Shown: piece after piece, positions 1 through 679 of the stretch
Layout of the letters: each line of letters opens with the position of its first letter
How positions within the stretch are numbered: the stretch's first letter is position 1
Virus record (IMG/VR): IMGVR_UViG_2585427729_000015
Coordinates: 1 to 8,945 of that record
DNA length: 8,945 bases
Source: a virus
Taxonomy: Duplodnaviria; Heunggongvirae; Uroviricota; Caudoviricetes
Strand: one strand, 5' to 3'
The notes under the pieces: model-generated
Database searches by the model: none
What the model saw: only the letters and a program-made list of their open reading frames with translations
What the model was told of the DNA's origin: nothing
Translations under genes and position numbers: made by a program

Positions 1-380
1 CCCGATTATCGAGAACTGTTCAGGGAGTCTGACATCAAGAGCGCGGTAGCCTTTTTTAATATTTCATTCTCCATTTCAATGCGTTGTAGCTTTTTCCTCA
101 GCTCACGTATTTCGATTTGTTCTGGTGTTATCGGAGAGGCTTTTGGTGTTTTGCCCTGACGCTCATCACGCAGTTGTTTGACCCATCTTGTCATTGTGAA
201 AAGGCCGATATCCATAGCTTTGGCGGCATCTGCCACCGTGTAGTTCTGGTCAACAACCAGTTGAGCGGATTCGCGTTTAAACTCTGCGCTGAAATTTCTT
301 TTTTTCATTGGAGCACCTGTGTTGTTCTGAGGTGAGCATATCACCTCTGTTCAGGTGGCCAAATTCAGTGTGCCACTACA
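1..380 (-). mobile_element. IS3-family insertion sequence (IS911-like), partial: terminal inverted repeat plus orfA; orfB and the other end lie beyond the window start
   Basis: Contains an OrfA-type small transposase ORF with an A6G slippery heptamer (complement of 51-57) of the kind used for programmed -1 frameshifting in IS3-family elements. The element end reads 5'-TGTAGTGGCACACTG... on the minus strand, ending at about 380. Reading frame content changes abruptly at 380/381 to an unrelated xis-like sequence. Confidence 0.75.
6..308 (-). CDS. insN: IS911-type OrfA (InsN-like HTH transposase subunit), apparently complete
   Basis: Translation [53 protein letters not shown]...LNSSR matches my recollection of IS911 OrfA. 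Start ATG at 306-308 has an AGGTG Shine-Dalgarno about 6 nt upstream; the longer track ORF starting at 344 would begin inside the terminal repeat. Stop at 6-8. Confidence 0.85.
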
Positions 381-679
381 TAGACAAAGACACTATCACG
401 CAGTGGATACGAAGTGGACGACTTCAGGCCGCAAAGATAAATCCAGATAAACCTAAAAGCCCATATCGCATTTGCAAGTCAGACTGCATTGCGGCGCTTA
501 AGTCTGTAAGACACAATAGCGCGGTGAATGCGGTTGATGTGCAGGAGGTTAAAGCATGTCAATCAAACTACGCGGTGGCACGTGGCACTGCGATTTCGTC
601 GCGCCAGATGGATCAAGAGTTAGACGCTCACTTAAAATATCGGACAAAAGGCAAGCGCAAGAATTTCACGATCGTCTGA
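381..679 (+). pseudogene. Excisionase / AlpA-like DNA-binding gene, 5'-truncated by the IS insertion; 3' end overlaps the integrase start
   Basis: Frame of track ORF 308-679 translates from 381 as ...TITQWIRSGRLQAAKINPDKPKSPYRICKSDCIAALKS..., resembling the helix-turn-helix of phage Xis/AlpA-type excisionases. No start codon or N-terminal helix remains because the IS terminus abuts at 380. Position immediately upstream of, and co-oriented with, the integrase is the canonical xis-int arrangement. Confidence 0.5.

Follow-up and report, generated by a model that had tools for sequence, protein, structure and literature searches.

The left edge of the 8,945-nt stretch of DNA analysed here (the window) records the loss of an excisionase gene in an aging prophage. 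Almost certainly, codon 17 of xis in an HK75-type lambdoid prophage lodged at the tRNA gene thrW received a single insertion of a 1249-bp IS911-like element of the IS3 family, which duplicated 3 bp of its target (TAG). What remains of xis is a pseudogene because the GTG start, the ribosome-binding site and residues 1–16 are gone, and the neighboring integrase gene, int, is intact. This is real and ordinary prophage decay in an old HK75-like remnant at thrW of Escherichia coli: a previously unannotated instance of a well-known lesion, in which an insertion sequence (IS) inactivates a prophage gene and IS-bounded deletions follow. A preliminary description of the window had proposed that an IS911-like insertion decapitated the excisionase gene next to the integrase, and it was right on this central point, with xis resuming from its nucleotide 50 directly beyond the IS end. 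The features on which the argument turns are collected in Table 1.

Table 1. Features at the junction between the insertion sequence and the xis-int module, in window coordinates
Feature	Position	Strand	Basis
IRL-proximal 380 bp of a 1249-bp IS911-like IS3-family insertion sequence	1–380	-	380/380 match to the SC477 copy
orfA of the IS, 100 aa, HTH transposase regulator	6–308	-	Pfam HTH_Tnp_1, E 6.9e-14
Chimeric ORF, 123 codons, 24 IS-derived codons fused to the xis remnant, TTG start	308–679	+	ORF list
Terminal inverted repeat, IRL tip, 5'-TGTAGTGGCACACTGAATTTGGCCACC on the - strand	354–380	-	Comparison with the other IS end and K-12 IS911A
xis remnant: two bases of codon 17, codons 18–115 and stop	381–679	+	Alignment to intact alleles, phrog_2907
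TAG, right-hand copy of the 3-bp target-site duplication	381–383	+	Left and right flanks in related loci
Tyrosine integrase gene int, intact, 386 aa	556–1716	+	Pfam Phage_integrase PF00589, E 3e-34
46-nt 3' end of the tRNA-Thr gene thrW, att core beside int, fragment only	1731–1776	-	Identity to thrW

The insertion sequence and its terminus

The window stops inside the IS, the remainder of which lies to its left. Three independent results concur in placing the terminus at position 380: uninterrupted xis alleles match the window from 381 onward; the annotated end of K-12 IS911A, TGAAGTGG..., aligns with the IS tip of the window at 380; and the same IS is present at its full 1249 bp in other contexts, which identifies it as a discrete mobile element. 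One such copy, in SC477 (L004:8132-9380), spans TGTAGTGGTCAACAAAAACTGGCCACC... to ...GGTGGCCAAATTCAGTGTGCCACTACA. Plasmids carry many more, with 1130 records holding at least 80% of the 1249 bp and 673 matching at 99% identity or above; the best 12 plasmid matches listed span all 1249 bp at no less than 99.5% identity. In the window the IS end reads ...CCACTACA, its last base being 380, and the opposite end in SC477 is TGTAGTGGTCAACAAAAACTGGCCACC (opening TGTAGTGGTCAAC...), which together give the TG...CA termini of an IS3-family element.

The end that faces xis is the orfA-proximal one, IRL, and transcription of orfA points away from xis. The orfA product also has a partial match to the NCBIfam model transpos_IS3. 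Of the family's coding arrangement—orfA and orfB joined through a -1 frameshift into OrfAB—the window itself holds orfA, and the rest is taken from the annotation of identical copies, which in RefSeq are described as “IS3 family transposase, programmed frameshift” and carry rve domains. PGAP labels the IS as “IS3 family transposase” only.

IS911 belongs to the IS3 family and moves by copy-out-paste-in transposition. The window IS resembles it in its TG...CA ends, its 100-aa OrfA, its 3-bp duplication and its orfAB with programmed frameshift (as annotated in relatives), and it aligns colinearly, beginning at its first base, with both K-12 IS911A fragments at 89–90% nucleotide identity. It differs in that the identity is about 90% only, in its tips, which read TGTAG versus TGAAG, and in the length of the transposase called in relatives, 389 aa versus the 382 aa reported for IS911 OrfAB. 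OrfA of IS911 is likewise 100 aa (PMC2909936). “IS911-like”, or IS911 relative, is a fair name as judged against K-12 IS911A.

The insertion point in xis

Across 5426 complete E. coli genomes, similarity to the window on its int side sets in exactly at 381 wherever the IS is absent. From that base to 1776 the window is 98.1% identical to the module of HK75, a temperate phage isolated on K-12, comprising xis from nucleotide 50 on, int and the attP core (L017 2550-3945); identity of about 98% from 381 is also seen with PAI III of E. coli 536. Intact alleles from 536 PAI III (at thrW), from strain PEC422 and from phage HK75 place the insertion point precisely. In each, xis is 348 nt long, encoding 115 codons, and its GTG start lies 49 nt upstream of the point matching 381, so the window copy is short by 16 codons and one nucleotide. 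Intact alleles have the native GTG and its Shine-Dalgarno (SD) sequence at least 49 nt ahead of the junction, and the window contains neither. In 536 and PEC422 the 348-nt gene is annotated as “helix-turn-helix domain-containing protein” and shares its stop position with the window ORF; in HK75 it is annotated as excisionase and overlaps the integrase gene. Intact Xis starts (GTG) MEEEIFTREEAASYLKVDKGTITQW..., the window part starts ...(I)DKDTITQW..., and the lost residues 1–16 are MEEEIFTREEAASYLK. As the preliminary description had it, the xis-like frame begins at the IS terminus without a start codon: homology runs from 381, and the earliest in-frame start within the xis-derived part is GTG524, codon 73 of the ORF.

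The description also predicted a 3-bp target duplication, and it can be seen in related loci, not within the window, whose left IS end falls outside. In eight of these loci (L004, L006, L007, L010, L011, L013, L014 and L015) the far end of the IS adjoins ...GTGGAAGAAGAAATCTTCACTCGTGAAGAGGCAGCATCGTATCTGAAGGTAG, the missing 5' end of xis. The left IS flank ends ...AAGGTAG there and the right flank starts TAGACAAAG; because exactly three bases of the HK75 sequence (L017 2550-2552) are common to both flanks, the target duplication is the 3-bp TAG. Three base pairs is the size expected of an IS3-family element. Simple insertion is thus proven in these eight loci, where the 5' piece of xis lies beyond the IS with the TAG duplication. 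The left flank of a simple insertion takes the form ...GAAGAGGCAGC(A/G)TCGTATCT(G/T)AAGGTAG directly adjoining TGTAGTGGTCAACAAAAACTGGCCACC, a signature also written as ...GAAGGTAG directly at the IRR end of the IS.

Related loci and the history of decay

The exact junction between IS and xis (100% over 120 nt) occurs in 7 of the 5426 complete E. coli genomes, and RefSeq leaves the xis remnant unannotated in all seven; 113 genomes of the same set carry xis uninterrupted across the insertion point. Among the contig matches listed, the break falls at the same nucleotide in all 10 places, a recurrence that leaves no role for chance. In a larger assembly collection, 725 indexed blocks contain the exact Int protein. 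The window as a whole is found in none of the 5426 complete E. coli genomes, the best match covering 72% of it.

In relatives that show the left side of the IS, the prophage has been reduced to some 8 kb and is joined to an inverse-autotransporter gene of the chromosome. It retains a fragment of replication gene P, gam, bet, exo and small genes of the ea region, along with a cargo pair of LysR regulator and PACE transporter, and two small genes. The pair itself is divergent, a LysR regulator and a PACE-family efflux transporter between the ea-region genes and xis (L003:5563-7009, L004:5851-7297), and appears to be prophage cargo.

Some related loci have lost more. In a deletion variant represented by L003 (7000-7140) and L012, the same IS adjoins the terminator of the PACE-transporter gene; the 5' end of xis and the two small upstream genes are deleted, and there is no duplication (GTT versus TAG). 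In L008 and L009 (8568-9825 in both), the same right junction is occupied by another complete IS3-family IS, 1258 bp long and about 64% identical to the window type, again with no target duplication; its left end sits near yagU, inside the P arm belonging to a related att region. The two copies of this second IS differ from each other by about 9% internally, and their flanks are 98–100% identical; with the window-type IS they share exactly only the terminal 14 nt. We considered a recombinant hybrid as the origin of this second IS and rejected it, as a hybrid is not detectable and full-length copies 99.9% identical to it occur elsewhere. The simplest reading of L008 and L009 would be a crossover between IS tips that deleted the DNA between them. 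In related strains the IS later became an end-point for further deletions.

The CP4-6 cryptic prophage of K-12, which sits at thrW and holds an IS911A split by IS30, presents the same kind of decay at the same locus, by IS hits and IS-bounded deletions. It differs in that another gene was hit and in that K-12 is without the xis-int module of the window.

Because a second thrW-integrated prophage remnant begins directly to the right of the 46-nt core (window 1777–8945), the locus is a tandem array. In strain 23CRST010 this second thrW element ends with its own P22-like xis-int pair beside an intact thrW; the Xis of the neighboring element is 43% and its Int 56% identical to those of the window element. 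The tRNA gene is a known integration hot spot (PMC7545054).

Two alternatives to a single insertion into xis bear on this history. The natural start of xis might lie at or downstream of 381, with the IS merely adjacent, a reading that the preliminary description named as fatal to its own proposal and to which we attach practically no credence. All uninterrupted alleles, those of the functional phages HK75, HK542 and mEp213 included, have 16 more codons upstream; the 113 complete genomes just mentioned run uninterrupted across the insertion point; and no in-frame start occurs from 381 until codon 73 of the ORF. Of 177 phage records with a match, 173 span 80% or more of the 115-aa Xis, and alignments to the distant homologues of P22, SfI, ES18 and APSE start at residue 1, and so the 115-aa form is the natural one. 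Intact alleles, phage homologues and the start-codon scan refute a later start. An unlikely though credible reading is that, in the window genome, the IS marks a deletion or rearrangement junction, with the 5' end of xis and the left-hand phage genes gone; the outcome for xis would be unchanged. The IS does have its left end at the PACE-transporter terminator, with no duplication, in L003 and L012 (two of ten related places), and L008 and L009 combine larger deletions with a different IS at the same junction. Against this, 8 of 12 related loci show simple insertion, and so do L006 and L015, the two that share most right-hand sequence with the window and extend furthest to the right (window 1–2039). 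Simple insertion remains our preferred reading of the window as well.

The IS::xis allele and the deletion variants derived from it mark lineages at the thrW hot spot, and the locus illustrates how a prophage is grounded stepwise, an IS hit in xis being followed by IS-bounded deletions. Otherwise it has little importance beyond annotation and strain history. A full-text literature search found no earlier description of this IS::xis allele among the titles and abstracts listed.

What the excisionase has lost

The identity of the truncated protein is clear from its family profile. Window 380–679 matches the excisionase family phrog_2907 with an E value of 1.2e-42 over profile positions 18–117 of 117, and the intact Xis matches it end to end (E 1.2e-52), so that what the remnant lacks is profile positions 1–17. 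A frame upstream of int that was not xis-like on a profile search had been foreseen as a second way in which the preliminary description could fail; the phrog_2907 match is plainly xis-like. Phages HK75, HK542 and mEp213 have an excisionase that shares 99.1% identity with the intact form. The position of the remnant is also that of an excisionase gene, for it overlaps int by 124 nt, with the att core beyond. The frame had been called xis/AlpA-like, of which the first half stands, as a P22/HK75-type Xis related to HTH_17 and TIGR01764; as for the second, neither the remnant nor the intact allele gave a PF05930 Phage_AlpA match at E values up to 0.1.

Domain models tell how much of the protein is gone. 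Intact Xis scores 35.3 bits against HTH_17 (cut-off 27) and 31.8 bits against TIGR01764 (cut-off 28.8), through residues 6–51 and 6–36, respectively. The remnant reaches 18.2 bits for HTH_17, below the cut-off of 27, over profile positions 13–42 only, and the chimeric versions reach 17.6–17.8 bits over those same positions; TIGR01764 matches neither the remnant nor the 308–679 chimera. A complete N-terminal helix-turn-helix (HTH) domain is thus present in the intact allele and missing from the remnant. Judged by profile alignment, the lost segment would be the first part of the HTH domain of the excisionase: residues 5–15 (IFTREEAASYL) are the predicted helix 1, and the cut probably falls in the turn before a putative recognition helix (DKGTITQWIRSG). 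A PDB sequence search with intact Xis returned no close solved structure, the best match being a weak one to BldC (6AMA, E 0.14).

The Xis of P22, compared here through a tblastn match to AF527608.1, is a distant allele of the same kind. The intact allele is 42.5% identical to it over residues 1–112, both belong to phrog_2907, and the two are alike in length (116 aa in P22), in their placement overlapping int and in the use of thrW for integration; the window copy, unlike that of P22, is truncated. P22 Xis is the characterized relative, a protein that binds att DNA and bends it (Mattis et al. 2008, cited in PMC7498355).

A chimeric reading frame

Beyond the loss of xis, the preliminary description drew attention to the frame that stays open from the xis remnant back into the IS, to a supposed ATG at 308, and suggested that this chimera might be expressed from IS-associated outward transcription. 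The open frame is there, closed upstream by an in-frame TGA at 290–292 and open from 293 to 679. The codon at 308–310, however, is TTG, without an SD match; a CAT at 306–308 is the start codon of orfA, an ATG on the opposite strand. The IS supplies three in-frame start candidates, and their best anti-SD pairing differs widely. TTG308 (+0.4 kcal/mol) has no usable SD, and GTG332 (-1.5 kcal/mol) has zero spacing between the SD-like match and the start. GTG368 (-5.9 kcal/mol) is served by an SD-like AGGTGG at 8-nt spacing, inside the IS tip. By comparison, the native xis start pairs at -6.4 and the int start at -11.0 kcal/mol. An ORF begun at GTG332 would have exactly 115 codons, equal to intact xis, by coincidence.

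The proposed outward transcription found no support. The outward -35 element of IS911 lies in IRR, and the end present here is IRL, which in IS911 carries only a -10 element that completes the fusion promoter for transposase (PMC9330008). A consensus scan of 1–1900 on both strands found no sigma-70-like promoter, shuffled sequence giving a mean of 1.9 sites, and outward transcription is unsupported for that reason. The 308–679 ORF exists and is an accidental fusion; nothing supports its expression.

Consequences for excision

With xis gone, the rest of the module is in good order. The PF00589 match in Int covers profile positions 2–170 of 172, hence a full catalytic domain, and 375 of 386 residues (97%) are identical to HK75 Int, with no gaps. 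Both the attP core of HK75 and the thrW 3' end seen in L001 and L003 match the 46-nt core base for base; ARAGORN found no whole tRNA in the window. Set beside the xis-int-attP module of HK75, HK542 and mEp213 and the int/RDF pair of 536 PAI III at thrW, the window is alike in the 46-nt core, in the xis/int overlap and in a remnant nearly identical to residues 18–115 of the intact protein. It is unlike them in having an IS end in place of the 49 nt with which xis begins, which leaves no start codon and no predicted first helix.

Integrases of the lambda and P22 type need Xis as the directionality factor for excision. The remnant would give no functional excisionase, and Int alone would then be unable to promote attL x attR excision of the element. 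Since integrases of this type need their Xis, we infer, soundly in our view, that the element would be unable to excise by itself, as the preliminary description had suspected. The need for a directionality factor is also treated in PMC7545054. In relatives, immobility is overdetermined because the prophage is already the remnant of about 8 kb fused to the chromosomal autotransporter gene. Because the remnant is unannotated, automated prophage tools may score the intact int and att as mobile, even with the directionality factor dead.

There are two ways in which the element might escape this fate, neither of which we favor. An excisionase supplied in trans, by the neighboring thrW element or by another resident P22-like prophage, could stand in for Xis, so that the element would not be locked. 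In L005 the neighboring element does have its own xis-int pair on the same thrW core, at the identities of 43% for Xis and 56% for Int given above, and strain 536 is reported to show cross-talk among the integrases of its islands (PMC7545054). Yet recognition of the P-arm sites is doubtful at 43% identity, the neighboring xis-int pair is seen in relatives and would fall beyond position 8945 in the window genome, and the left element in relatives is also without its distal end; we consider this rescue improbable. The other way is through the chimeric ORF, which, if expressed from TTG308, GTG332 or GTG368, might give an excisionase with full or partial activity, or a modulator that binds Int, such that the locus would not be functionally xis-null. 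The frame is open throughout, GTG368 is nearly as well paired with anti-SD as the native start, and residues 18–115 are intact and near-identical to those of intact alleles, the putative recognition helix and the entire C-terminal part included. Several points argue the other way: no sigma-70-like promoter in 1–1900 on either strand, IS genes that are transcribed away from xis, an IRL where IS911 has its outward -35 element in IRR, no usable SD at TTG308 or GTG332, failure of the chimera to reach the cut-offs of HTH_17 and TIGR01764, which intact Xis clears, and loss in relatives of the promoter region of the upstream early-left operon. An expressed and active chimera is, to our minds, very improbable, and a dead xis that leaves the element grounded is the reading that we keep.

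The C-terminal part of lambda Xis contacts Int. Should a transcript cross the IS antisense, a headless Xis may be translated from GTG368. Such a protein, made by antisense read-through, would have no DNA binding and keep the C-terminal part, and could act as a dominant negative on Int, holding in place the element and possibly neighboring thrW elements with related integrases; we offer this as a speculation even less probable than an active chimera.

Other genes in the window

Further genes lie to the right of the att core. A three-gene cassette of low GC (29–35%) with overlapping stops and starts lies at 2524–4425 on the + strand and encodes a ParA-like ATPase (phrog_164) and two proteins of unknown function (phrog_6264 and phrog_7540). 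PADLOC matched no system within the cassette, which, upstream of a type IV restriction gene, could be an uncharacterized phage moron or defense cassette. That restriction gene (5296–7245, + strand) encodes a full-length GmrSD-family type IV, modification-dependent enzyme, recognized by PADLOC as mREase_IV at 1437 bits and by Pfam through GmrSD_N and GmrSD_C. Between the two, at 4463–5217, strain 23CRST010 is annotated with fragments of umuC (DUF4113, frameshifted) and dinI, which look like further decayed cargo.

Toward the right end of the window, the first ~54 codons only of a Pin/Hin-type serine invertase (7341–7505, - strand) adjoin a tail-fibre tip ORF (7496–7846) and convergent tail-fibre-assembly genes at 7848–8288 (+ strand) and 8260–8862 (- strand). 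The whole interval, 7341–8862, has the look of an invertible switch of host range that froze when the invertase was lost.
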